From: a virus
Lineage: Duplodnaviria; Caudoviricetes
Virus record (IMG/VR): IMGVR_UViG_3300022555_000003
Location: 96,001 to 160,000 of that record
DNA: 64,000 bases
Reading direction: 5' to 3' (one strand)
Shown: positions 8,226 through 39,646 of the stretch, one piece after another
Layout: each line of letters starts with the position of its first letter
How positions within the stretch are numbered: the stretch's first letter is position 1
The notes under the pieces: model-generated
Seen by the model: the letters and a program-made list of their open reading frames with translations, nothing else
Database searches by the model: none
Told to the model about the DNA's origin: nothing
Translations under genes and position numbers: made by a program

Positions 8226-9467
8226 ATGCGGAAAGAAACAACAATGCCTAATAAATGCAGCTTTTGCAATAAAACTCGCGAAGAAGCTACCAAGTTGATC
8301 ATTAGCGGTGCTACCGCAGCAATTTGCGATGAGTGCGTTGAATTGTGCTCAAATTTATTAATAAATCAGCAAAATGTAAATATTAAAAAAGACAAAAAAC
8401 TTGCAAAACACACTAACCCAATTAGAATAAAACAGTATCTGGACCAATTTGTTATTGGTCAAGAAGATGCTAAGATTGCAATTAGTGTTGGGGTTGCAAA
8501 TCATTATAAGAGATTATTTTATACAAGTGCAATTGCAATTGAGAAAAGTAATATATTATTACATGGACCAACAGGAACAGGGAAAACGCTATTAGCCAAA
8601 ACAATTGCAGATTTCTTAGATGTTCCTTTTATTATTGCTAATGCAACTGGACTTACCGAAGCTGGATATGTTGGCGATGATGTTGAAAGTATTCTAAGTA
8701 GATTATTATTAGCAGCAGATGGTGATATCGAAAAAGCACAACACGGCATTATCTTTTTAGATGAAATTGATAAAATTGGTAAAAAAAACGACGGATCAAC
8801 TGCTAACAGAGACATAACTGGAGAAGGTGTACAACAAGCATTATTGAAAATAATTGAGGGCGCTGTTATTTCAGTACCAACAGATGGCGGCAAAAAACAT
8901 GCTGGTTCATCTGTTGTCGATATTGACACAACAGGAATATTATTTATTGCTAGTGGTTCATTTGTTGGTTTATCAGATGTTATAACAAGACGCAATAAAG
9001 AAAACTCAATTGGTTTTGGATCTACAAAAGTAAATAAAGTCCAGTCTTCAACAGCATCAGTAGACGATTTAATTAAGTTTGGTATGATTCCAGAATTTAT
9101 GGGTAGGTTCCCAGTTATTGTTTATACTAATGTGTTAACAACACCCGAATTGATAAAAGTATTAACTAGTACTAAAAATAACTTAATTAGTCAATATAAA
9201 TTTTATTTTACAATTGATGGAATTGAAATTTGCTTTACACAAGAAGCATTAGAAAGTATTGCTGGAAAAGCAAGCATATTGAAAACAGGCGCAAGGGCAC
9301 TAAAAAATATTTTAGAAAATAGTTTGATGCCACATTTATTTGCATTACCAAAATATAAAGAACAAAAAGTAGTGGAAATTACATTTACCGCAGGTGTTTT
9401 CAACACAAATGCATCACCAGAATTTTCATATAAATCAAAAGCTAAACAAGTTTTAACAGCAGGTTAA
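8226..9467 (+). CDS. clpX: ClpX AAA+ unfoldase
   Basis: C4 zinc finger (CSFC..CDEC), Walker A GPTGTGKT, TEAGYVGDDVE, Walker B IIFLDEIDK, IGF loop, PEFMGRFP. Confidence 0.95.
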   Translation: MRKETTMPNKCSFCNKTREEATKLIISGATAAICDECVELCSNLLINQQNVNIKKDKKLAKHTNPIRIKQYLDQFVIGQEDAKIAISVGVANHYKRLFYTSAIAIEKSNILLHGPTGTGKTLLAKTIADFLDVPFIIANATGLTEAGYVGDDVESILSRLLLAADGDIEKAQHGIIFLDEIDKIGKKNDGSTANRDITGEGVQQALLKIIEGAVISVPTDGGKKHAGSSVVDIDTTGILFIASGSFVGLSDVITRRNKENSIGFGSTKVNKVQSSTASVDDLIKFGMIPEFMGRFPVIVYTNVLTTPELIKVLTSTKNNLISQYKFYFTIDGIEICFTQEALESIAGKASILKTGARALKNILENSLMPHLFALPKYKEQKVVEITFTAGVFNTNASPEFSYKSKAKQVLTAG

Positions 9468-20522: not shown

Positions 20523-20985
20523 GTATTATTTTCAAAGCGCACAAAAAGTTATTGGGAAGGGTGATCTCCAACTCAGTAATAAATGTTCAGGGGTTCGACT
20601 CCCTTGTCAGCGTTACAGCTGAACGGGTCCATGTAGAATTAGTGGCCACTGAGTCTCATACATTGAATTTTGGTGCGCTTTGAAAATATTATGAAAATTT
20701 TTACGGATGAAATCGACAGCAGAGCAGAATTGTTTGTTAATGACAATTTTAGCAATCCAACAGACAACGTCAGATTGATTGTCAAAACAGCTATGCTCAT
20801 TGGGGCGTCTATCACAGTAGAATACAATAGCAACTGTTCAAATATTAGTTCAAAAATCTCAGAAATTAGTATTGACGGCAGAAAAAGATGCTATTATGTA
20901 TTAGGTGTTTATTGTCCGTATGATGTAGTTAATGAAGCAATATGTGATTCATGTATTGCTTGTGGACGACTTGGAGATTAAAAAT

Positions 20986-22002
20986 ATGAGCGACATAACA
21001 CGAAAATTAGCGACAGTTAGAAAAATTTCAAATATTACTGCAATCCCAGACGCAGACAACATTGTCTGCGCTCAGGTTGATGGATGGAAGGTTGTTGTCC
21101 TAAAGGATCAATTTAGGATTGGCGAGTATGCAGTGTACTTTGAAATTGATTCTTGGATTCCAAAAGACATTGCTCCGTTCCTAACTAAGCCTGGACAACC
21201 TGCCAAAGAATATGAAGGCGTTGTTGGTAATCGGCTTAAGACTATTCGATTGAGAAATCAATTATCTCAAGGACTGTTGATGCCGTTATCTGTTCTACCT
21301 TCAGACGTTAATTATGAACTTGGTTCAGATGTCACAGACTTGTTAGGCATTCTCAAATATGAAGCTCCTGTACCGAACGAAATCGCAGCTCAAGTAAAAG
21401 GTCACTTTCCAAATTTCATTGGCAAAACTGATCAAGAACGTTGCCAAAATTTAACGAACGAAATTGAACAATGGTCATCGGATCCAACAATGACATGGGA
21501 AGTAACAGAAAAGATCGATGGAAAATCTATCACATTTTTTCAAAGAAATGGTGAGGTTAGTTACTGTGGACGGAACTACGAGTTCAAAGATGTAACAACT
21601 CATTCTATTTCTAATGTTAATATTGAAACAATGTTTGCTGATAAAAGTCTGAACATTGCAATTCAAGGCGAAAAAGTTGGACCAGGAATTCAGAACAACA
21701 AGTACAAACTAAACAAGCACTTCTTTTATGTGTTTGATATTTTTGATATCGACAATCAAACGTATTTCACACCAGCAGATCGGCAGAAATATGTTATGGA
21801 CCATAATCTGTTGCATGTTCCAATCTTAAATAAAACTGCTAATTTGAAATCAGTTGATGAACTGTTAGCAGACGCAGACGGCAAATCAATTGTTTGCTCA
21901 ACACTGGACCGTGAAGGAATGGTATTTAAGGCTAACAATGGACGAGGTAATTTTAAGGCAATCTCAAATAAATTTCTTTTGAAATATTCTGACAGAGATT
22001 AA
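20986..22002 (+). CDS. ATP-dependent RNA ligase (DRB0094-like family)
   Basis: RKLATVRKI N-domain, KTDQERCQN, motif I EKIDGKS, QGE, FDIF, REGMVFK, FKAISNKFLLK. Confidence 0.88.
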   Translation: MSDITRKLATVRKISNITAIPDADNIVCAQVDGWKVVVLKDQFRIGEYAVYFEIDSWIPKDIAPFLTKPGQPAKEYEGVVGNRLKTIRLRNQLSQGLLMPLSVLPSDVNYELGSDVTDLLGILKYEAPVPNEIAAQVKGHFPNFIGKTDQERCQNLTNEIEQWSSDPTMTWEVTEKIDGKSITFFQRNGEVSYCGRNYEFKDVTTHSISNVNIETMFADKSLNIAIQGEKVGPGIQNNKYKLNKHFFYVFDIFDIDNQTYFTPADRQKYVMDHNLLHVPILNKTANLKSVDELLADADGKSIVCSTLDREGMVFKANNGRGNFKAISNKFLLKYSDRD

Positions 22003-25529: not shown

Positions 25530-25919
25530 ATGCAAATCAAATCCAAATCTGGTAAAATACTACATACATTTGATGATAAGACAGATCTGTATGGAGCAAA
25601 TTTAGATCGATTACATTTGCACAATGCAGATTTACGTGGAGCAGATTTGACTTGGGCAACTTTATGTCACACAAATCTGAATGACGCCGATTTAAGCCAT
25701 TCAAATTTGTGGTGGGCAGATTTGAGTTTTACATTGATGAGTGGTACAAATCTACATGGAGCAAATTTAGATTGTGTAAACATGTATTGTGCGGATCTAC
25801 GTGGAGCAAATTTAGAAAATATAGTACTAAACGAAAATACTAATATTGGTCCATCAACTAAACTTGATCCTGAGCAGCTTACATATTTGATGTTAAGAGG
25901 AATTAGATATGGAGATTAA
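25530..25919 (+). CDS. Pentapeptide-repeat protein 6
   Basis: MQIKSKSG ... [21 protein letters not shown]. Confidence 0.9.
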   Translation: MQIKSKSGKILHTFDDKTDLYGANLDRLHLHNADLRGADLTWATLCHTNLNDADLSHSNLWWADLSFTLMSGTNLHGANLDCVNMYCADLRGANLENIVLNENTNIGPSTKLDPEQLTYLMLRGIRYGD

Positions 25920-26355
25920 AACAAAATTTGGTGCAGTAATATTTATAACATTTAATGATACATTGGTTGGTGAAAATTTATGGGGAGCCGACTTTAGTCA
26001 TGCAGATTTCAATGGTATGAATTTAAGTTATGTAAATTTGTGTGAATCAAATTTATATTCTGTAAATTTCTGTCAAGCAGATTTAAGTGGAGCAGACTTA
26101 CTTGGAGCAAACTTATGTAAATCTGATTTACGTGGAGCTAATTTATTTGGAGCAGATTTATTTTGTACAAATCTAATAGGTGCTAATTTAAGTGGAGCAA
26201 ATTTATGTAATGTTGATTTACGTGGAGTCGATTTACGTGGAGCAAAGTTAGATAATGTTATAATAGATCGATTTACAAGAATTAGCAGTACAACTAAAAT
26301 AAGTAAAAAACAACTTACTTATCTATTATTAATTGGTCTCAAATATGCAAATTAA
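25909..26355 (+). CDS. Pentapeptide-repeat protein 7
   Basis: MEIKTKFG ... TRISSTTKISKKQLTYLLLIGLKYAN. Confidence 0.9.
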   Translation: MEIKTKFGAVIFITFNDTLVGENLWGADFSHADFNGMNLSYVNLCESNLYSVNFCQADLSGADLLGANLCKSDLRGANLFGADLFCTNLIGANLSGANLCNVDLRGVDLRGAKLDNVIIDRFTRISSTTKISKKQLTYLLLIGLKYAN

Positions 26356-26695
26356 CACAACAATAAGATCATTAACTGGTGAATTATTGCATGTTGGTCC
26401 CGAACTAATTCTATCCAATTTGGATTTAAGTTATGCTAATTTATATGGTAGACGTTTGAGTTTTACATTGATGAGTGGTACAAATCTACTTGGGGCAGAT
26501 TTATTTGGAGCAAACTTACGTGGTGCAGATTTAAGTGGTGCAGATTTAAGTGGTGCTGATATGCGGCAAGCAGATCTACGTGGAGCAAAGTTAGATAATG
26601 TGAAAATAGATGACGATACAAGAATTAGCAGTACAACTAAAATAAGTAAAAAACAACTTACATATTTACTTTTGTTGGGCCTTAATTATGGGTAG
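26345..26695 (+). CDS. Pentapeptide-repeat protein 8
   Basis: MQIN..IRSLTG ... TRISSTTKISKKQLTYLLLLGLNYG. Confidence 0.9.
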   Translation: MQINTTIRSLTGELLHVGPELILSNLDLSYANLYGRRLSFTLMSGTNLLGADLFGANLRGADLSGADLSGADMRQADLRGAKLDNVKIDDDTRISSTTKISKKQLTYLLLLGLNYG

Positions 26696-27676: not shown

Positions 27677-27690
27677 ATTAAGTCCTAAAG

Positions 27691-27702
27691 ATAAATACTT
27701 AT
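27691..27702 (+). promoter_or_regulatory. T4-type late promoter
   Basis: ATAAATA-CTTAT-ATG. Confidence 0.7.
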
Positions 27703-29181
27703 ATGATATTACGAGAACTCTATGAGCAATTATCTGAAGGAATCAACGACCCTCATAATTTTAAAGCACTTATTACAATAGGGGCCCCTGGTTCAGGAAA
27801 ATCTAGTGTTGTTAAAATATTAACAGCTGGTAGTGGTTTAACTAAGGTTGATCCAGATCAATTTTATGAAATGTTTAAATCACGACACGGATATAAAGAA
27901 TTTGAAACCCCTCCTGACATTGAAAAAGATCCAGACTGGGAAAAAGCCAAGTTATCACAGCGCTCCAGACGAGCAAATCTATTAGAAGCCCATCGTGGTA
28001 TAATTCTAGATACAACTGGAAGATATGTAGAAGCTGTAATTAGAGATATATCTAGATTACGTAGCGAAGGGTATGATGTCGCTATGTTATATGTTGATGT
28101 GTCAACAAAAACTGCTATAGATAGACAACAATTAAGAAGCCGAAAAGTAAATCCTGACATTGTTGAACAATTTCACAATGAAGTAAAAGCTAATATATCA
28201 GAATATAAATCAATATTAGGTGATAATTTTGTAATATATAATAATGATTTAGGTAATATTGATACTAGCGACCCAAATAGATTTAAATCTAATATACCAA
28301 ATACAACTCCTAGAAAATGGATTACTAAATGGCTTAACACACCAGTTAATAATGAAAAAGCGAATAAATGGAGAGCAACACAGAAACCAGCTGCTGGAAG
28401 ACGTGATAATCCATTACATGAAACCATTACTGTGCCGTCTGATCCATCTAGTGATGCAAATATACAAGAACTAGCAGATATAATCAAAAAAAAATGTAGT
28501 AAATATCTAGAGTCTGTTCAACCAGGTCAATTTCTATGGCATGGAACTAGTAGTAAAACAAAAGATATGGTGTATGCATCGAAAAGTCGTGCTGTTAGAA
28601 TACCAGTTGACAGTGATAAATTTATAACATCTTTGTTTGATAAAGCATTAAATGAACATGGGTTTATTGCTACCAGAAGTAATAGTATATTTGTAATTGG
28701 CGACAAAAACGCCGCTGAAGAGTATGGAACATTATATGCTATTTTTCCAATAAACGGTTTTAATTTTACCTGGTCTATGTCACACAATGATGTAATATTA
28801 AGTAAAAATACTGGATTAAGATATAAATTATTTAATCCCGAAAAATTACAACAAATCTTGAAGAATAAACTCGCTCACTGTTCTTCAATTGATATAGCAA
28901 ATAAAGATAACATCAATCAGTTTTTAAAAGGTAATATTAAAAAATTGTACGGAATAACCTTCACTCCTAAAGAAATTCAAACAATGTTTGATAGTGATGT
29001 AGCAATGAAGAATTTCAATTTTTCAAAAGAAAACTTATCAAAAGCAATTAATAGCGAAAATGAAATATATTTAAGTGGAAAATATATTGCTATACGTGGT
29101 GGACTAGTTTTATCTAGGGTATGCTCTATATTATTCCCAATGGTAAAACCTCCACATATAAAGAAAAGGCGTCATTCATGA
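27703..29181 (+). CDS. Zeta-toxin-like P-loop kinase fused to an ADP-ribosyltransferase-like domain
   Basis: GAPGSGKS, VDPD, ILDTTG; C-domain LWHG, RSNSIF, A..YG, IFP, ENEI. Confidence 0.6.
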   Translation: MILRELYEQLSEGINDPHNFKALITIGAPGSGKSSVVKILTAGSGLTKVDPDQFYEMFKSRHGYKEFETPPDIEKDPDWEKAKLSQRSRRANLLEAHRGIILDTTGRYVEAVIRDISRLRSEGYDVAMLYVDVSTKTAIDRQQLRSRKVNPDIVEQFHNEVKANISEYKSILGDNFVIYNNDLGNIDTSDPNRFKSNIPNTTPRKWITKWLNTPVNNEKANKWRATQKPAAGRRDNPLHETITVPSDPSSDANIQELADIIKKKCSKYLESVQPGQFLWHGTSSKTKDMVYASKSRAVRIPVDSDKFITSLFDKALNEHGFIATRSNSIFVIGDKNAAEEYGTLYAIFPINGFNFTWSMSHNDVILSKNTGLRYKLFNPEKLQQILKNKLAHCSSIDIANKDNINQFLKGNIKKLYGITFTPKEIQTMFDSDVAMKNFNFSKENLSKAINSENEIYLSGKYIAIRGGLVLSRVCSILFPMVKPPHIKKRRHS

Positions 29182-30092
29182 GAATTTTTGAAGTATCAGA
29201 AAAAACTCAATTAATAGATTCTGATGTTTTTAGAAAAGCTCTAAATTTATTAAAAGAACATAATATTGGGTCTAGGGCATTCAATTTTGCTATATCTCCA
29301 TTGGTCGACGAATTAATATTTGATTGTCATCAATTTTATAATACATTAATAACGCAGAGTAGCAAGTTCTTAAACGAAATGAAAAATTCTGGAACTTTAC
29401 CATTTAGAGGAAGTGAAAGTGCTTCTGTCGAAAACGGTATTGGTATTTTTCAATCAGCATCCATTGAGAATCGTCGTCCAATGTCAAGTGTATCTACTTT
29501 ACAAACTCAACTAAGTGCAGCAATGTCGTCAGCTGGGATTAAAGCTACAAGAAGTAATAGTATATTCACAACAGGAAGATATGAACACGCTAATTCATAT
29601 GGTATAGTTAGTGTTATATTTCCAAAAAATACAGCCAATTTTAGTTGGTCTGATTCAGAAGATTACAAAGATATTATATTAAATTTACGTGATGAGGGTG
29701 TAACTAATACATTTAAAGATTCTGAAATATATAAGAAAGCACTATCATTAGTAAAAACTTATCCAGAAAAATACGATTTAAATAGATTACTTAGTAAAAA
29801 ATGTGGAGAAGCTTCTATTTCATATTATGATTTTAAATTCAAGCATAAAGACATTGCTAGTATGTCTGGTTTTTATAAGCATCAATTTGAAGAATTTATA
29901 CATCTAGATACTATTAGACTTCTTAAAGAAATGAATATTAAGACTTCAAACTTTTCAGCAGCATTAGATGCAGCTGGAGAAATTTTAATTAATGGAGAAT
30001 ATATCAGTATACGAACAGATTCATATATTATATTAAATTATATTTTTCCTGATCTACCTCGACTTCCGTCTCCACCATTTGATCAATATTAA
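29178..30092 (+). CDS. ADP-ribosyltransferase-like paralog 2
   Basis: MRIFEV start (ATGA overlap); PFRG, RSNSIFTT, ANSYG, IFP, GEILINGEYI. Confidence 0.55.
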   Translation: MRIFEVSEKTQLIDSDVFRKALNLLKEHNIGSRAFNFAISPLVDELIFDCHQFYNTLITQSSKFLNEMKNSGTLPFRGSESASVENGIGIFQSASIENRRPMSSVSTLQTQLSAAMSSAGIKATRSNSIFTTGRYEHANSYGIVSVIFPKNTANFSWSDSEDYKDIILNLRDEGVTNTFKDSEIYKKALSLVKTYPEKYDLNRLLSKKCGEASISYYDFKFKHKDIASMSGFYKHQFEEFIHLDTIRLLKEMNIKTSNFSAALDAAGEILINGEYISIRTDSYIILNYIFPDLPRLPSPPFDQY

Positions 30093-30100
30093 GGATAATT

Positions 30101-30991
30101 ATGATACTAAACGAATTACTAGCGCCTGGTGAAAAGAAACCATTAACATTCAGAAGTGATAGGCGTGCGCTTGACAAGTCTAGTAGTGATAAAATAATGC
30201 AAATTTACGATCCGATAATTCAACACATTTTTACTGATTGTAGCAGATTCTTAGAAGAGATAAAAGGTACAAAATGTTTATGCTATCATGGTTCCAATGA
30301 TGTTAGGAAAAATAATTCTCCAATTTTTATGGGAAAATCAATGAATGATCGACGGGCTAGAAATTCATCTACATTATCAACAATGATATTTAATAATGCA
30401 CTATCTAAGATTGGTATTAAAGCAAACAGAAGTAACAGTTTATTTGTGGTGTCTGACTATACCGCAGCAAAAGGATATGGAAATAAAGTTTATGTAATAT
30501 TTCCAAAAAATACTTCTGATTATTGTTGGACTAAGTATCTAGACTTGATTTTACCTGGTGTTTCATATCTGCCAGTTGATAATAAAATAGATTATTCAGA
30601 TGAATACAAACTACTTATTAAAATGGCATCTGCACTGCCTGAAAGTATTGAAAAAGAAAATCTATTAGAAAAAATTAAAGAGTTACCAGAAAAAAATCTA
30701 GAAGAAATATTAGAAACTTTAAAGTATGATATCAAATGGGAAGAGACTGGGGCAGACCTATTAGAAAAATCGGGCATGGATGAATTATTAAATGAAGAGA
30801 ACCCAAAATTAATAAAGTATTTTCCAATGGATACTGCTTCTTTTGTTGAGAAGTATCAACCAAAAAATACAGATTTACAAACAGCATTAATAAGAGCTGT
30901 AGAAATATATATACATGGTGAATACATAGCAATTGAAGTATCTATGTACGAGAATTTACGAAAATATTATCCGGAGTTACCAACAGAATGA
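30101..30991 (+). CDS. ADP-ribosyltransferase-like paralog 3
   Basis: CYHG, RSNSLF, AKGYG, VIFP, VEIYIHGEYI. Confidence 0.55.
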   Translation: MILNELLAPGEKKPLTFRSDRRALDKSSSDKIMQIYDPIIQHIFTDCSRFLEEIKGTKCLCYHGSNDVRKNNSPIFMGKSMNDRRARNSSTLSTMIFNNALSKIGIKANRSNSLFVVSDYTAAKGYGNKVYVIFPKNTSDYCWTKYLDLILPGVSYLPVDNKIDYSDEYKLLIKMASALPESIEKENLLEKIKELPEKNLEEILETLKYDIKWEETGADLLEKSGMDELLNEENPKLIKYFPMDTASFVEKYQPKNTDLQTALIRAVEIYIHGEYIAIEVSMYENLRKYYPELPTE

Positions 30992-31845
30992 GACTACTAG
31001 AATTTTCAAATACAACAATCATACCGAAATCAAGTCAATATTCTGATTTAAAAAATATTACTGTTGAGATATTAACTCCACTTGTTAATCAGATCAATGA
31101 TAACTGTGGTGATTGTCTAGAAGCGATGCATGTGTCACAATGTACAGCATGGCGAGGCTTTAGGAATCAATTTGACTTAGCTTTTTCTGCAGAGTCAGTT
31201 GAAAATAGAAGAGTTAAAGATAGTGATCCAATTCTAACTGCTAAAGTTGATAGTATATTACAAAAAAATGGAATAGAAGCTCGTAGGAGTAACAGCATAT
31301 TTGTTACAAGTAAACAAGGATTAGCATCTGTTTATGGAAGAGTCTATGCTATATTCCCATATGATTATGCAGAATTTAGTTGGTCATCCAATGAAAAGTT
31401 TGACGATGTAGTACTTAATCCACGTGATTCCGGTATGTCAAGATGGTTAATAAATCAGTTAAAAAATTATGAAGTATTTAGAAATATATTTAATAATGTA
31501 CATAATAATCCTGATAATGAATATAGTAAAAAAGACAGAACATATATATTAAATATACTAAAACAAATAAGTGAAGAAGATTACGCCACAGCAGAAGTTA
31601 GTTTGCGGTCATTATCGTTAGCATTTAGCGATTTAGCTGATGAACTTGGTTATGATGATGATACTTTTATTCAATATTTTTCAATAGATGAAAAAGCAAT
31701 GATGAATGATTTACGAATTAAAACTACTGACTTTGCAAGTGCTCTATCTAATGAAGGTGAAATTTTAATAAATGGGGAATATATTGCAGTAAGTGAAAAA
31801 TTATACTTACGAATACAAGAACTTTTTCCAGGGATTTTTAGATAA
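30988..31845 (+). CDS. ADP-ribosyltransferase-like paralog 4
   Basis: AWRG, RSNSIFVTS, ASVYG, IFP, EGEILINGEYI. Confidence 0.55.
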   Translation: MRLLEFSNTTIIPKSSQYSDLKNITVEILTPLVNQINDNCGDCLEAMHVSQCTAWRGFRNQFDLAFSAESVENRRVKDSDPILTAKVDSILQKNGIEARRSNSIFVTSKQGLASVYGRVYAIFPYDYAEFSWSSNEKFDDVVLNPRDSGMSRWLINQLKNYEVFRNIFNNVHNNPDNEYSKKDRTYILNILKQISEEDYATAEVSLRSLSLAFSDLADELGYDDDTFIQYFSIDEKAMMNDLRIKTTDFASALSNEGEILINGEYIAVSEKLYLRIQELFPGIFR

Positions 31846-32075
31846 TGAAACTACTAGAATTTTCTATGTATGTTATTAATAATGACATAGAATCTATATC
31901 AAAATTTGACACCATTGTAAGAGGTATGATTGATGTTAATTTTACTGATAAAGAAATATGGCATGAACAACATACCAGTCATTGGAAATCATTGAAAGAC
32001 CAAGTAAAGAAAGCATTCATAACTTTGTATCCTGAATTTAAATCATATACATGGAGACATGTAGGTCCTGGTTAA
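31845..32075 (+). CDS. Small protein with MKLLEF N-terminus
   Basis: Shares the N-terminal motif of its neighbours. Confidence 0.5.
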   Translation: MKLLEFSMYVINNDIESISKFDTIVRGMIDVNFTDKEIWHEQHTSHWKSLKDQVKKAFITLYPEFKSYTWRHVGPG

Positions 32076-32321
32076 TATAAAATAATATGGAAAAATTAAC
32101 GTTATTTGATCTAATCTCCAATGAAGTAATTTGGGATTCAAGTTACTGTTACTATTGTGAAAACGAAATTGAATTACCTGGCGATGATAACAATGAACTA
32201 TTAATTAGAGTTTATCGTGGAGGTCATGATCACTTAATCTTTGTGGTATTCCACAAGTCGTGTTATGATAACTTCTTAAAAGTTTGTGGACCGTTATTTA
32301 CTTAATGGGATAAATAGTTAT

Positions 32322-33026
32322 ATGCGAATAAAAGAGCTATTAATGGAAGGTGGTAATGTATTTGATGGCACAACTCCATTTAACCACAACGTAATTCCAG
32401 ATATTTTGAAGATTATTAATGGAGCCTTAAAGGAAACTGGAATCAAAGTTATTCCCGTTGGGTCTGGTGCAACTCCAACTCCAGGAAAAATTAGTAACGA
32501 TCTAGACGCAATGGTAGACGAAGCTGATGTACTTGCTTATTTTAAAGCTGCTGATGCTAAAACTGGAAGGCAAGCATTAGGTAAATTCTTAAAAGCTAAA
32601 AATTTAGACGTTACACTCAATGGTGTAAATGTCCACGTTAAAGTCCCAGTTGGTGATGAATTTCATCAAGTTGATTTAATGGTAGTTCCAAACGCAAGCA
32701 AGATAGCAAAATTTCACACACATAAACTTCCAGCTAATAGTCCATTCAAAGGTGTTAACAAACAATTGATGTTGGCTATCTTAGCTAAAGAACATAACAT
32801 GATGTGGTCGGCCTGGCAAGGACTTTTTTCAAGGAATGCTGAAGGTAAGAAAGACAAATTTTTAGGTAATGATATTGATCAAATTGCGAAGTTATTATTT
32901 GGAAAAAATGCAACTGGTGCTAATTTAGATTCAGTTGAAAGTATTTTGAAGTCATTACCAAAAGATAAAGCAGACAGCTTATTAGCAAAATGTAGATTAG
33001 ATCCAAATTGGAAAGAAATCAAATGA
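32322..33026 (+). CDS. Pol-beta-superfamily nucleotidyltransferase-like late protein
   Basis: MRIKELLME start after ATAAATA-N5; VGSG...NDLDAMVD...HQVDLMV. Confidence 0.6.
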   Translation: MRIKELLMEGGNVFDGTTPFNHNVIPDILKIINGALKETGIKVIPVGSGATPTPGKISNDLDAMVDEADVLAYFKAADAKTGRQALGKFLKAKNLDVTLNGVNVHVKVPVGDEFHQVDLMVVPNASKIAKFHTHKLPANSPFKGVNKQLMLAILAKEHNMMWSAWQGLFSRNAEGKKDKFLGNDIDQIAKLLFGKNATGANLDSVESILKSLPKDKADSLLAKCRLDPNWKEIK

Positions 33027-33382
33027 AGCTAACTGAAATTAATCCGCCAGGAAAGATGTTAGAAAATTTCTTGAGCTTTGCTAAAGATAAGCTTAAACTA
33101 ACTAAGCTACCAAAAATACAATTTAAAGAAAAAGCAAAAGATGTTAACAGCTTTGGTTACTATGATGTTGGAACTGATTCAATTGTTATAGCAATCGAAA
33201 AACGCCACCCAATGGATATATTTAGAACACTTGCTCATGAATTAGTTCATCATACGCAACGTATGAATAATGAAATTAATAATAAGAGTGGGCAAACTGG
33301 TAGTCCACAAGAAAATGATGCAAATTCACTAGCTGGAGTGTTAATGCGTGAATTTTCTAAAAAGTATCCTGAATATATTTAA
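33023..33382 (+). CDS. HExxH zinc metallopeptidase-like late protein
   Basis: MKLTEI start; RTLAHELVHHTQ...ENDAN. Confidence 0.65.
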   Translation: MKLTEINPPGKMLENFLSFAKDKLKLTKLPKIQFKEKAKDVNSFGYYDVGTDSIVIAIEKRHPMDIFRTLAHELVHHTQRMNNEINNKSGQTGSPQENDANSLAGVLMREFSKKYPEYI

Positions 33383-34491
33383 CGTTTAGCTCTAGTTTTA
33401 ACTGGTTCTGGATTTTGTTGTTTACGTGCTGTCTTTGTGACACTTAGATCTTTTGGCTTACTTGGTGCGCCTGGTTCAGTAGCAATAGCTTTGCCAGCTT
33501 TTGCAGTTCCAACAATATCAATCTTAGGAGAAACGCTACCTTCTGGCCCCCACAATTGAATACTTTCAACTTTTACATTATTGATATTTTGTGTGTAATC
33601 ACTAAAACATAATGATGTTTGTGTAGTTGTTCTAATACATAACATCAGCTCAAAATTTGAATATGTTTTATAATTTTCAAATATAGCTACAGCCCAAGCT
33701 TTACGTAATTCAGGTTCAGAACCACTCATTATTTGTTTTCGTAATGTATCTGTTATGCTTGTATCTTTTACAAATTTAAAAGTTGATTTAACTATAACAT
33801 CTGCTACTTCAGCTTTTTGTTTTGATTTTGGTCCATAAGTATCGCGAACAGTTATCCATCGTGGACCAGTTAAACTTGCTTTTGATTCTTCAAGTTCAGC
33901 AAATAATTCAGGATAATTTTTTTCTAATGATCTAGATATGCTTGTCATATCAAGTTTAGCTTTTCTAGGATCACCCCATCTCCCACCAGACGTAATTGAA
34001 TCTTTTAGTTCAACATGTTTAGAATTGATAACTAAATCGCCACCACCCGATTTACTACCAATGCTTGTAATATTTGGACTAAGAACAGATAGTGCTAATT
34101 CACCAGGACCAATTCCTTGAGCAGTTATTACATTCAATTCATTAAATATTTTTAATGCAAACGGATCAGTAATTATATCACTTAAATTTTGAATTTTATT
34201 GAGAGTAAGTAATTTACTGATGTTGATGAACCCTTTTGAGTAATTATCAACAAATCTAGTCTTATCTTCTAAAGTTCCTTCAGTTTGTACTATTACCTTA
34301 CTTAGATGATTAAAAATCTTACTAGCATCAGGATCTGCTTTTAATATAGTAGACAACCTAGTAAGTAATGTTCCAGATTGCAAAGTAGAAGACACTTTTT
34401 TCAAAAGTGAAATATCTGTTTCTTTCTCTACACTTTGTTTGATATCTTTTTTTAGATCTGCTAAGTTTTCGTCAACTTCGAATATTCTCAT
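33379..34491 (-). CDS. Late protein, possible PD-(D/E)xK nuclease-like fold
   Basis: MRIFEV after ATAAATA-N5; GPGE...GGGDLVINSKHVELK. Confidence 0.45.
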   Translation of the reverse strand: MRIFEVDENLADLKKDIKQSVEKETDISLLKKVSSTLQSGTLLTRLSTILKADPDASKIFNHLSKVIVQTEGTLEDKTRFVDNYSKGFINISKLLTLNKIQNLSDIITDPFALKIFNELNVITAQGIGPGELALSVLSPNITSIGSKSGGGDLVINSKHVELKDSITSGGRWGDPRKAKLDMTSISRSLEKNYPELFAELEESKASLTGPRWITVRDTYGPKSKQKAEVADVIVKSTFKFVKDTSITDTLRKQIMSGSEPELRKAWAVAIFENYKTYSNFELMLCIRTTTQTSLCFSDYTQNINNVKVESIQLWGPEGSVSPKIDIVGTAKAGKAIATEPGAPSKPKDLSVTKTARKQQNPEPVKTRAKR

Positions 34492-34509: not shown

Positions 34510-35151
34510 TTACTTCTTCTTGCTATCTGTGTTATATGGATAATACGAAGAAATATTGTCAGCAATGCCAATTTTAACAGCTTCTTTAGCTTCTAAGAAT
34601 ACATCTGATGGTGGCAATAAGTGAGTTCTAATATCTTCTTCTGCTTTTAAGTTAGTACAATGTTTGATATGATTGATTAAACGTCTTTCAGTTCTTACCA
34701 TCTCTTCATTCATTGCAATTAGTTCGTGTGTTTTGCCAGATGTTCCCCAGCTAAATTGATGGCTAAGGATACTAGTATTTGGAGTTATTGTTCTGTGGCC
34801 TTTAACTCCAGCAATAAATGCAAATAATCCACAACTTGATATCGATCCAATCCCAACTGTATGAACCGGAATACTACTTCCTTTCATGACATCAATAAGA
34901 GCAAAACAAGCAGATAGGTCGCCACCTGTACTCATAATTACTAATGTTATATACTTTGGTGTTTTACCAAAGGTCTGTAAATTTTTTGATAAGATAAACT
35001 TTATCACTTTTGATACTGAATAAAAAGAAAATTCTTCTGAAAAAACATATATACCACTTTGATTTAAAATTGCGTCTGAATCTAAGTCTAATGAAATTTG
35101 ATTTTCAAAATATTCATCTTCTATGTTTGCTTCTACTCTGTTAGGCATCAT
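34510..35151 (-). CDS. clpP: ClpP-like protease
   Basis: IMSTGGDL, GSISSCG (catalytic Ser), ILSHQ (His), D.FLEAKEAVKIGIAD. Confidence 0.85.
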   Translation of the reverse strand: MMPNRVEANIEDEYFENQISLDLDSDAILNQSGIYVFSEEFSFYSVSKVIKFILSKNLQTFGKTPKYITLVIMSTGGDLSACFALIDVMKGSSIPVHTVGIGSISSCGLFAFIAGVKGHRTITPNTSILSHQFSWGTSGKTHELIAMNEEMVRTERRLINHIKHCTNLKAEEDIRTHLLPPSDVFLEAKEAVKIGIADNISSYYPYNTDSKKK

Positions 35152-37176: not shown

Positions 37177-38109
37177 TCATTTGCATTTGCAGGCCTCAAA
37201 GGAATCAAACACTGTTACATTCTTGCAGTTTTCTTTTGCCATAAATTTCATGTCAGCAGATGATCGAATTGAATCAGTAGTAAAAATTTGATTAAAATAC
37301 TTAAAAATAATCTCCATACCCTTAGAGAAAATTCCATGCGTTACATATAACCCCATGTATAAATTCCTCTGTCGCTTCCTAATAATATCTGCGATACCAA
37401 TAAAAGTACCGCCGCCATCACAAATATCATCAATGATCAAAACATTATCGTATAAGAATTCATTTGCTTCTGGAACATTGAAACCTTCAAACAATCCAGT
37501 TTCAGGATTTCTCTTCTTTGTTGCAAACAAGACCTGTACTGGCCACTGTCCACTATTGTAACCAATAGTCTCAGGAACTTCATATCGGCCCGCTGCGCCC
37601 TTGTCAGGAAACAATACAGTCAAACCTTTATTACCATAACCATTGTCCCAAGCCATTGAAACAAAATGTTTCATTGCACGTTTGATTAGTGGTTCTGCAG
37701 AAACATTAATAATGTTATCTTGGAAGATCAATGATGGATTATGAACATCAAGTGTAATAATATTATGGAAACCTGTTTCGCGCAACATACTGCAAACTAC
37801 ATCCAGTCCGCATGTATCGCCTTTTTTGAATCTCCTGTCAGCTCTGCTATAAGGCAAATAAGGAATATATAGTTTGTAATCTGTGTTGAATTCAATAACA
37901 GAATAAATTGCAGAATCTAAATGTAGTAATGTTACTAGTTCATCTGCTGTTCTTGCTTTTGATAACACATCAACTTGATCTGAACTTTCTAGTTCCTTAA
38001 CTCCAGCGTCTGTGAAACGAACTTGCATTTCGCCAGCTGGATAATAAAACTTTTCAAACCACCCACCAGGCACACAATCTGTTGTAATCGACATTGCCTT
38101 GTTATACAT
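37177..38109 (-). CDS. Ribose-phosphate pyrophosphokinase-like protein (Adps candidate)
   Basis: YPAGEM, PYLPYSRADR, LDVH, FPDKGAAGRY, IIDDICDGGGTF, LYVTHGIFSKG. Confidence 0.88.
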   Translation of the reverse strand: MYNKAMSITTDCVPGGWFEKFYYPAGEMQVRFTDAGVKELESSDQVDVLSKARTADELVTLLHLDSAIYSVIEFNTDYKLYIPYLPYSRADRRFKKGDTCGLDVVCSMLRETGFHNIITLDVHNPSLIFQDNIINVSAEPLIKRAMKHFVSMAWDNGYGNKGLTVLFPDKGAAGRYEVPETIGYNSGQWPVQVLFATKKRNPETGLFEGFNVPEANEFLYDNVLIIDDICDGGGTFIGIADIIRKRQRNLYMGLYVTHGIFSKGMEIIFKYFNQIFTTDSIRSSADMKFMAKENCKNVTVFDSFEACKCK

Positions 38110-38110
38110 A

Positions 38111-39646
38111 TTAAAGTCCTTTCCTTACGCGATCCCGAATAACATCAAATGTTGGATCAATTTTTAAATTGCTGTCAATGAACACTTGCTCATACGCACA
38201 ATTTCGAAATTCTTCTTCAGTAACATTCTGGAGAAGCTCATAAGTTGGATTGTCGTCTGTAGACAGTGTAGTTCTGTATACAGCAAGAAGTCCACGATGT
38301 GAAAACTTTCCGCCGGAGTCAGTAACGGGCTTCTTAAAGATTGGAATAATCTTGCCGTCTTTTTCAATTGCGGTCGCCTTCATCGCATTACCAAATGTAT
38401 CACGTGTTACATATTCATATGTATATGATCCAACGCCTAATACTTGATTATATGGAGACAATCCTTGTTTAACAATACCACCTAAAATATTGTCTGCGCG
38501 TTCTTCTGTAATTGCATCACCATAAATCAAACCGCCCTTGTTGATTAATGGAAGTCTTCCAGTTGGATTAGGCACTGTTCCTAGAGCCCTTCGTAAACAT
38601 TCCATGGCACCTAAATAAGCAGGATGTTCAAAAGATTTATATTGATGATTCATTCCTTTGTAATCATCATTGCCTAGAATAATTTTTTCAGGATCTCCTG
38701 AGTCAGGACGGATAACAAGCTTACCGTCACGTGCAATAATTCGTTCTTTCAACTTGCAAATAATATCTGTCAGTACACTCCAGAGATCCCATGTATCAGA
38801 CACAACTGATAAAATTCCTTTTGGATATACTTTGAACAATAAACGTTCAAATGTTTCTAGTTCTCCTTCTTCGCCGCCTGCACACATAACAGAGTGTTCA
38901 GTTGCATTAACAGATCCACCACAATTAAGATTTGCACGATAATATTTTACTGCAGAAAGGATTGCAGGAAGTGTATCTGTACCTGAGAATGAAAGCAAAT
39001 GGCCCATCCCAGATAAACATGCATCTTCTACACCAGACATTCCACGAAAGCTAAAATCGTGACATTGCCAATCTACAAAACCAAAATCTAATTCTCCTGC
39101 TGCCCTGGCATGCTTCATACAAATCTCTCTGTATCGGCGTGCCTTTGTTGCAGACGTTGATGGCTTCCAAAGAATTGATGACATCAAAGATTCAATATAG
39201 TTTGTGACCCATGCAAAATCTTTGTGAGTGTTAACTACAATAATAGGAGGAATATTTAGTGGAACTTGGAATCCTTCTGGTAGAGACCAAATTTCAACTG
39301 GAAGATATTGCAATTGATGTAGTGCCCTGATATGGGAAGATTCTGTGAGACCAATTGTAGCACCCATTACCATTTCGTATTCAGCAATAACTTCTTCTTC
39401 AGGACGAGAAAAGAAATGTTTGTTGAATGCTTCAATCAAATACTTTTTTGCAAAGTACGTGAAACCAAAATTAACTACTTTTGTTACACCTGGAATTCGT
39501 GTAGAACGCGGAGTCCAGTTGCTAAACACTCTTGTAATACCATCTGGGTATTGAAAGATGTGACCTGCCTTATAAAAATCAATTAAAAACATCGGATTTT
39601 CGATGTCAAGTGTAAGTAGTAATTTTTCTAAATCTGTCGTAATCAT
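38111..39646 (-). CDS. Nicotinamide phosphoribosyltransferase-like protein (Namat candidate)
   Basis: DFYK..H..QYP, HDFSFRG, FSGTDT, ATEHSVM, SVVSDTWD, VIRPDSGDP, IYGDAIT, RDTFG.AMKAT. Confidence 0.92.
   Translation of the reverse strand: MITTDLEKLLLTLDIENPMFLIDFYKAGHIFQYPDGITRVFSNWTPRSTRIPGVTKVVNFGFTYFAKKYLIEAFNKHFFSRPEEEVIAEYEMVMGATIGLTESSHIRALHQLQYLPVEIWSLPEGFQVPLNIPPIIVVNTHKDFAWVTNYIESLMSSILWKPSTSATKARRYREICMKHARAAGELDFGFVDWQCHDFSFRGMSGVEDACLSGMGHLLSFSGTDTLPAILSAVKYYRANLNCGGSVNATEHSVMCAGGEEGELETFERLLFKVYPKGILSVVSDTWDLWSVLTDIICKLKERIIARDGKLVIRPDSGDPEKIILGNDDYKGMNHQYKSFEHPAYLGAMECLRRALGTVPNPTGRLPLINKGGLIYGDAITEERADNILGGIVKQGLSPYNQVLGVGSYTYEYVTRDTFGNAMKATAIEKDGKIIPIFKKPVTDSGGKFSHRGLLAVYRTTLSTDDNPTYELLQNVTEEEFRNCAYEQVFIDSNLKIDPTFDVIRDRVRKGL

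Follow-up and report, generated by a model that had tools for sequence, protein, structure and literature searches.

Tandem paralogs with a predicted ADP-ribosyltransferase fold as candidate capsid cargo of an uncultured jumbo phage

The Alt protein of phage T4 is the textbook example of an enzyme that is packed in the phage head and reprograms the host on arrival. Proteins of its kind, the ADP-ribosyltransferases (ARTs), carry Arg or His on strand 1 of their core, S-T-S (R-S-E clade) or Tyr (H-Y-E clade) on strand 2 and Glu at strand 5. Large myoviruses carry many fast-evolving ARTs, which are probably delivered at infection like T4 Alt (PMC9503650, PMC7824862). T4 also has a capsid targeting sequence (CTS) with the residues MKTYQEFIAE, which is cleaved a single time and leaves its cargo inside the head (PMC8442874, citing Mullaney and Black 1996). 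Here we analysed a window of 64,000 nucleotides (bases 96,001-160,000 of the IMG/VR virus record IMGVR_UViG_3300022555_000003, which has 242,080 bp, inverted terminal repeats and an estimated completeness of ~74%), in which positions 27703-31845 hold a tandem array of four genes. In the reading that we favour, with a probability of about 0.5, the four genes form one late operon of a diverged, unannotated phage family with an ART-superfamily core, and encode capsid-delivered enzymes that use nicotinamide adenine dinucleotide (NAD+).

The array consists of four open reading frames (ORFs) on one strand, whose stops and starts overlap or almost touch, and is preceded by a promoter-like motif (positions are those of the window; aa, amino acids; strand-1 residues and ART-fold assignments follow from the predicted structures described below):

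27690-27697, plus strand: late-type promoter-like motif GATAAATA, with a 5-nt spacer to 27702, abutting the ATG of gene 1
27703-29181, plus strand: gene 1, 492 aa; leader MILRELYE; P-loop kinase at residues 21-170, a linker, and a predicted ART-fold family domain at residues ~254-465; strand-1 His; E-N-E
29178-30092, plus strand: gene 2, 304 aa from MRIFEVSE; predicted ART-fold family member; strand-1 Arg; A-G-E
30101-30991, plus strand: gene 3, 296 aa; leader MILNELL; predicted ART-fold family member; strand-1 His; A-V-E
30988-31845, plus strand: gene 4, 285 aa; leader MRLLEF; predicted ART-fold family member; strand-1 Arg; E-G-E

Genes 1-4 are true paralogs, with pairwise identities of 27-31% across ~250 residues, 34 invariant columns (alignment A1) and within-genome E-values against gene 4 of 1.6e-16 to 1.8e-31. 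All four match phrog_11975, a family of unknown function, with E-values from 2.5e-19 to 2.7e-35 (gene 1, 2.7e-35; gene 2, 2.5e-19; gene 3, 7.9e-24), and a Pfam scan of the four proteins matched no family via the ART-fold domain. For gene 2 the most likely start is 29178 (MRIFEV), where its ATGA overlaps the stop of gene 1, and not at 29121. The original prediction, made from the letters of this stretch, had described four adjacent paralogs here, and the details it quoted were all recovered: the motifs LWHG/PFRG/CYHG/AWRG, RSNS(I/L)F, A..YG, IFP, W(S/T) and ENEIY/AGEIL/AVEIY/EGEIL; the alternation of two His and two Arg at strand 1 (H, R, H, R in genes 1-4); E-x-E in genes 1 and 4; a variable stretch between the conserved blocks, of differing length in the alignments; and an M-x-x-x-E start on every member, which can be narrowed to M-x-[IL]-x-E (MILRE, MRIFE, MILNE, MRLLE). 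Its picture of a four-gene set has to be widened, in that the array is real but not isolated, and the kinase of gene 1 had been overlooked. The family totals ~17 copies in the 242-kb record, in two clusters, the four-gene array and a distal cluster of ~13 further copies at 192-205.6 kb of the record, one of them truncated. This truncated copy (164 aa, genome 192229-192723, minus strand) stops just past the A..YG helix and probably represents a pseudogene or a paralog with a frameshift.

Beyond this record, 1.84 billion representative proteins were searched with a profile, which gave 5,141 clusters at E<=1e-3, of which 697 reached E<=1e-30; among them are proteins with two copies of the domain. 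One protein of another virus (P0007, 2,645 aa) holds at least five copies, which suggests a polyprotein form of the same cargo. The family is without annotation in Pfam, PHROGs and UniProt. Of its matches in a viral structure library, two bear a name ("Zeta toxin domain-containing" and "putative chorismate mutase-like", one entry each), and the rest are labelled uncharacterised. No phage record matched the array in megablast, and the only two phages in which tblastn located the family were Agrobacterium phage Atu_ph07 and Ralstonia phage RsoM2USA.

Two structural models were built with high confidence. Gene 4, folded with the paralog alignment, reached a predicted local distance difference test score (pLDDT) of 89.4 and a predicted template modelling score (pTM) of 0.84, and the insert-free 169-aa core of a short paralog, folded with the 80-sequence alignment A3, reached a pLDDT of 97.0 and a pTM of 0.91; the latter was chosen because helical bundles resembling the insert dominated the VIA search with the full-length model. 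The modelled chain begins with two helices; between strands 1 and 2 lie an extra strand and a helix, a short helix separates strand 2 from strands 3 and 4, and two short helices precede strands 5 and 6. The model has the split beta-sheet core of the ART superfamily, with two three-stranded units in the canonical strand order. Long paralogs have an extra helical bundle of ~80-100 aa after strand 4, which in gene 4 is an insert of ~100 aa between strand 4 and strand 5. The ART superfamily dominated the solved-structure matches, with BC2332 at the top (score 6.8, 130 residues aligned), followed by Arr (5.6), diphtheria toxin (4.2), AvrPphF ORF2 (4.0), Spx, cholix and exotoxin A (about 4.0), TreX (3.6), Tpt1 (3.5) and four entries of DarT (3.4-3.5); BC2332-like proteins constitute family d.166.1.6 of the ADP-ribosylation superfamily in SCOP (PMC3000352). 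Structure searches also retrieved ART-PolyVal (template modelling score 0.53 by the hit) and Tse2 clusters from the ESM Atlas, and DarT, DUF7587 and DUF2441 entries from AFDB, while a language-model feature search retrieved DUF2441. Judging from these models, the array family very probably has the ART-superfamily fold. The ART-type core proposed in the original prediction was supported by the predicted structures and the ART-dominated solved-structure matches. Foldseek against the PDB returned no significant match for either model.

Conservation follows the same core. In the numbering of the 169-aa core, with conservation taken over the 80 members of A3 and strands assigned by DSSP on the model, R70, N72, S73, P94 and G150 are invariant, and C10, R26, G27, R44, S49, G65, A68, F75, G87, I92, D108, A139, E145, I148 and Y152 are conserved in at least 90% of members. 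All four window copies retain the full set, with the strand-1 Arg replaced by His in genes 1 and 3. Strand 1 carries R26-G27, as [YFW]-R-G in at least 90% of the 80 members; strand 2 opens with the invariant R-x-N-S followed by [IT]-[FY], with A..YG in the next helix; and E145, present in the four window copies as well, directly precedes strand 5 (146-149). We infer from the model that these conserved polar residues would occupy the three places where ARTs bind NAD+. The variable region lies between strand 4 and a conserved helix pair ahead of strand 5, which by topology fits the position of the ADP-ribosylating turn-turn (ARTT)/acceptor loop that selects targets, and would be compatible with diversified specificity.

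The T4 late promoter octamer is TATAAATA, and the GATAAATA motif ahead of the array resembles it. ATAAATA followed by ATG within 3-8 nt, mostly as GATAAATA-N5-ATG, lies upstream of 33 ORFs genome-wide, and PHROG searches assigned the ORFs behind it to tail sheath (1.4e-82), head-tail adaptor (1.3e-26), virion structural protein, baseplate wedge-like, tail collar and tail fibre functions. Since the motif is common to virion genes, we call the array late, and late expression is likely on this sequence evidence. The fixed short spacing between motif and ATG further implies leaderless or near-leaderless late mRNAs. Other copies of the motif in the window lie at 32309-32321 and upstream of 34491 (minus strand). 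The exact T4 octamer TATAAATA was tried as the promoter and rejected in favour of GATAAATA-N5-ATG, since the window shows no enrichment of it (6 copies vs 12 expected); sigma-70 and terminator scans stayed at shuffle level. The earlier statement that the array begins at a late promoter is supported by a motif shared with structural genes.

The array proteins share an N-terminal tag with the consensus M-[R/K/I]-[I/L]-x-E-[L/V/F]. Across the long ORFs, the pattern M-[RK]-x-x-[ED]-[ILFVM] matches 25 of the 403 Met positions that lie in the first 31 codons, vs 3 of 799 internal ones. Most family members and some non-homologous neighbours carry the tag, and homologs in other phages are tagged too, often in the extended form MxLxDLFEA. 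Its Arg codons are AGA, CGA, CGT and CGG, its Leu/Ile codons are also mixed, and structural genes with the same promoter motif are without it; because of these features, together with the tagged homologs, we place the conservation of the tag at the protein level. A nucleotide-level signal for leaderless translation was considered as its origin and rejected on the varied codons and the untagged structural genes. The T4 head protease recognises sites of the pattern (L/I)-x-E, and the array tags have L-R-E, I-F-E, L-N-E and L-L-E in positions 3-5, with L-Y-E and V-S-E in positions 6-8. The tag resembles a T4-type capsid-targeting leader and is probably trimmed.

The best evidence on packaging comes from Atu_ph07, in which gp54-gp63 are ten consecutive tandem family members (family hidden Markov model (HMM), E 1e-46 to 7.5e-7) with N-termini of the form M-[RK]-W-x-Q-L-[TN]-E or similar. 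After checking the gene numbering against Table S1 of the published study, we found that the virion proteome obtained by electrospray ionisation tandem mass spectrometry (Attai et al. 2018, PMC6102473, Table S5) includes all of gp54-63, at 12-47% sequence coverage and with 3-15 unique peptides each (gp54, 15; gp55, 3; gp56, 11; gp57, 9; gp58, 7; gp59, 7; gp60, 10; gp61, 9; gp62, 12; gp63, 13). The same data contain gp53, a kinase-fusion relative (31 unique peptides), and gp65 (10), and the authors described 29 virion proteins without known role in the cluster of coding sequences 31-76. Atu_ph07 also encodes a T4 gp21-like protease, and gp23-, gp20- and gp55-like genes (PMC6102473, Table S3). 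The virion study of RsoM2USA covered ten bands only, and its homolog ORF255 is outside that coverage. The proposal that the array proteins are packaged in virions is borne out for these homologs; for the uncultured phage of the window it would hold by analogy, and we regard it as reasonably probable.

Combined with the above, the favoured reading would operate as follows. The operon would be transcribed from the T4-like late promoter alongside virion genes; the short N-terminal tag, which has an (L/I)-x-E site and is probably trimmed, would steer the proteins into the assembling head; and the proteins would be ejected along with the DNA. In the new host they would use NAD+ for modifying targets, with NAD+ held by the strand-1 Arg/His, by R-x-N-S plus an aromatic residue at strand 2 and by the Glu before strand 5. 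The hypervariable helical insert that separates strands 4 and 5 would decide which targets are chosen, and the P-loop kinase of gene 1 would act as a second effector domain. NAD+-dependent catalysis by the array proteins is somewhat more likely than not, and the whole chain, including injection and diversified targets, has at best an even chance of being correct. In its most far-reaching form, this would be a capsid-delivered, combinatorially diversified arsenal, with an NAD+-using ART core that tolerates His, Arg or Ser at strand 1 and bears a hypervariable helical insert where targets are recognised, and with each of the 10-17 paralogs per phage modifying a different host protein, nucleic acid or immune signal, pre-empting host defences at DNA entry; we consider this form tentative and rather unlikely. 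An NAD+ salvage pair lies 5 kb from the array (window 37177-39646, minus strand), comprising a nicotinamide phosphoribosyltransferase (510 aa, phrog_448, 4.2e-161) and a ribose-phosphate pyrophosphokinase (309 aa, phrog_619, 1.9e-59). These genes are compatible with heavy NAD+ use, and are common in large phages (PMC9503650).

Several observations weigh against the favoured reading. At the sequence level, a PDB profile search gave only coiled-coil noise and no ART; Pfam on 80 family members, and Pfam and NCBIfam on the four array proteins, gave no known ART family; the PF10386 (DUF2441) and PF18760 (ART-PolyVal) HMMs had no match in the genome at E<=10; and hhalign of A3 against T4 Alt detected no homology (probability 0.2%, E 0.34, 16 columns). 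The nearest fold relative, BC2332, is itself without known function. At the putative active site, the strand-1 residue varies (genes 1 and 3 have His, three of the distal copies have Ser and all Atu_ph07 copies have Arg), the strand-2 motif departs from the canonical S-T-S and offers no clear Tyr, and the pocket placement of the conserved residues was deduced from secondary structure rather than coordinates. As for packaging, the Atu_ph07 preparation was purified with polyethylene glycol only and its 131 proteins include some replication enzymes, so that its specificity is imperfect (PMC6102473). A T4-type prohead protease, capsid or portal was not found in the 242-kb, ~74% complete record: a PF03420 (prohead protease) search gave no match, as was also the case for the control genomes, and tblastn with Atu_ph07 gp204, major capsid protein and portal against the record gave nothing.

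The alternative that survives best keeps the fold and the packaging and changes the chemistry. The proteins might act on nucleic acids, nucleotides or small molecules, in the manner of DarT, Tpt1/KptA or Arr, or hydrolyse NAD+ or NAD-derived immune signals, rather than ADP-ribosylate host proteins in the way of T4 Alt. The nearest fold kin point this way, as BC2332, Arr, DarT and Tpt1 outrank the R-S-E protein toxins as fold matches, so that targets need not be proteins; the Z gaps among ART clades are small (about 1-3 units), however, and fold proximity does not fix the substrate. Gene 1 is also pertinent here. Its residues 21-170 form a P-loop kinase (Pfam AAA_33, 3.4e-9; Zeta_toxin, 3.4e-9) that weakly resembles Zeta toxin, Pnkp1 and T4 polynucleotide kinase, and the protein also matches phrog_12810 at 3.1e-31. 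The fusion of such a kinase to the family domain recurs in proteins of other phages (P0041 and P0055), and in the opposite domain order in phrog_12810 and in Atu_ph07 gp53, whose residues 249-470 share 30% identity with the gene 1 kinase (3e-31); the family HMM misses the diverged N-terminal domain of gp53, which is suggested only by structure search and phrog_12810. Recurrent fusion in both orders to a kinase related to Zeta toxin and polynucleotide kinase favours this alternative, as does the presence in the window of the NAD+ salvage genes at 37177-39646 and of an RNA ligase (20932-22002, plus strand; phrog_968, 2.9e-83), which, with the kinase-ART fusion in the same window, could indicate RNA-end chemistry. 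On the other hand, 17 paralogs with a hypervariable insert suit diverse macromolecular targets better than one metabolite. On balance, we consider this other chemistry unlikely.

The linker of gene 1 (window 28405-28440, residues ~235-246) reads ...NPLHETITVPS and aligns with the N-terminal tags of its paralogs (MRLLEFSNTTIIP). This stretch, with its leader-like PLHE, might be the vestige of an internal tag, and perhaps also a protease site at which the kinase would be split from the ART-fold domain.

A second alternative is that the proteins are non-catalytic capsid cargo, that is, internal head proteins in which an ART-like scaffold blocks host defence proteins (as T4 IPI* does) or organises the packaged DNA. 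The occurrence of many paralogs together in virions, a strand-1 residue that can be R, H or S, the absence of a canonical S-T-S and of any sequence link to active ARTs would all suit such a role. Against it, the invariant or near-invariant positions are polar or charged (R44, S49, R70, N72, S73, D108, E145) and lie on the strands of the ART NAD+ site, and this active-site-like pattern is held in nearly all copies, across the 80 aligned members, which makes a non-catalytic role doubtful. It is more improbable still that the proteins are not packaged in the window phage at all and act late in the producing cell, with the N-terminal motif serving near-leaderless late mRNA expression or another role: the GATAAATA-N5-ATG spacing does imply very short or absent leaders, and head protease and capsid genes were not found in the 242-kb record, but structural genes behind the same promoter do without the peptide motif, its residues are conserved despite varied codons, and the Atu_ph07 homologs with an analogous tag are virion proteins.

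Downstream of the array, the tag continues on genes outside the family:

31845-32075, plus strand: 76-aa ORF; tag MKLLEF; overlaps the stop of gene 4; no Pfam or PHROG match
32309-32321 (motif) and 32322-33026 (ORF), plus strand: 234-aa protein; MRIKELLME followed by GGNVFDG...; second GATAAATA-N5 motif
33023-33382, plus strand: 119-aa protein; tag MKLTEI; HELVHH zincin-like (HExxH) motif
33379-34491, minus strand: 370-aa protein; tag MRIFEVDE; own GATAAATA-N5-ATG

The 76-aa ORF is probably in the same operon as the array. The 234-aa protein has a nucleotidyltransferase-like G-S...D-x-D pattern (identified by eye) and no Pfam or PHROG match, and shows weak similarity to Atu_ph07 gp65 in pairwise BLASTP (2e-5, 28% over 133 aa). 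This similarity begins right after ...LME, the pattern that would be expected of a detachable leader, and the protein is a probable further capsid cargo. The 119-aa HELVHH protein, whose match to the NCBIfam Hvo_1808 family (5.9e-8) is below cut-off, is likewise a probable cargo. Neighbouring genes gave no tblastn match at the Atu_ph07 loci. A second tagged 370-aa ORF (MRSSEFITEE, phrog_455) lies beside the distal array at 200.8-201.9 kb; tblastn of the 33379-34491 protein against its own genome recovered only itself, and no kinship with this second ORF was found.

A ClpX-like ATPase is encoded at 8226-9467 (plus strand; phrog_4339, 7.8e-88, with an N-terminal zinc-finger match), and Atu_ph07 encodes ClpX too. 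A ClpP-like protease at 34510-35151 (minus strand) has 'head maturation protease' as its best PHROG label (3.8e-19), and may be the head protease of the window phage. Three pentapeptide-repeat proteins in tandem (129, 148 and 120 aa), whose C-terminal tails are alike (...ISSTTKISKKQLTYLLL.GL.Y), lie just upstream of the array (25530-26695, plus strand).

Among known systems, T4 Alt (with ModA and ModB) is one of the closest. Like the array family as predicted here, it is a late phage protein of ART fold, and the T4 record annotates its presence in the capsid and its entry into the host with the DNA; its N-terminus, MELITELFDE, also resembles the tags described here (MILNELL and MILRELYE in the array, MxLxDLFE in homologs). 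It differs in being a single 682-aa R-S-E enzyme, whereas the phage family comprises 17 small paralogs with a fold closest to BC2332 and Arr, a variable helical insert and an activity that is predicted only. BC2332 (PDB 2AUA; SCOP d.166.1.6) shares 6% identity with the phage family, is bacterial, and has neither tag nor paralog arrays, and DUF2441 appears only as a weaker AFDB and Atlas lead. No sequence relationship links the family to the minimal ARTs that act on targets other than proteins (the rifampin ADP-ribosyltransferase Arr, DarT and Tpt1/KptA), and its conserved motifs differ from theirs (R / R-x-N-S / E in the family). ART-PolyVal (PF18760) domains are modules of one giant protein, while the phage family consists of separate small proteins, each with its own tag. 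The T4 CTS on IPI-III is, like the phage tag, a short N-terminal peptide ending in an (L/I)-x-E-type site and placed on unrelated late proteins; the phage tag has a different, shorter consensus and is found on ~25 proteins, many of them enzyme-like, vs three small basic proteins in T4. A gp21-type protease was not found in the ~74% complete record of the window phage.

A literature search found no published description of the phrog_11975 family, its tag or its arrays. The concept of many delivered ARTs is already published; what is new is an Alt-like strategy that would proceed via an unrelated, unannotated ART-fold family in multi-copy and tagged form. If the family works like Alt, distant T4-like jumbo phages would have scaled the principle up to at least a dozen diversified ART-fold enzymes per virion, together with kinases and other tagged cargo, and if an arsenal of this kind does exist, its more than 5,000 clusters would rank it among the largest effector families of jumbo phages that are still undescribed. 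With gp54-63, Atu_ph07 offers a cultured and proteomically characterised representative in which direct tests are possible. Tests of this kind might uncover new ADP-ribosylation targets or anti-defence mechanisms, and might furnish a portable tag for loading proteins into the capsids of jumbo phages.

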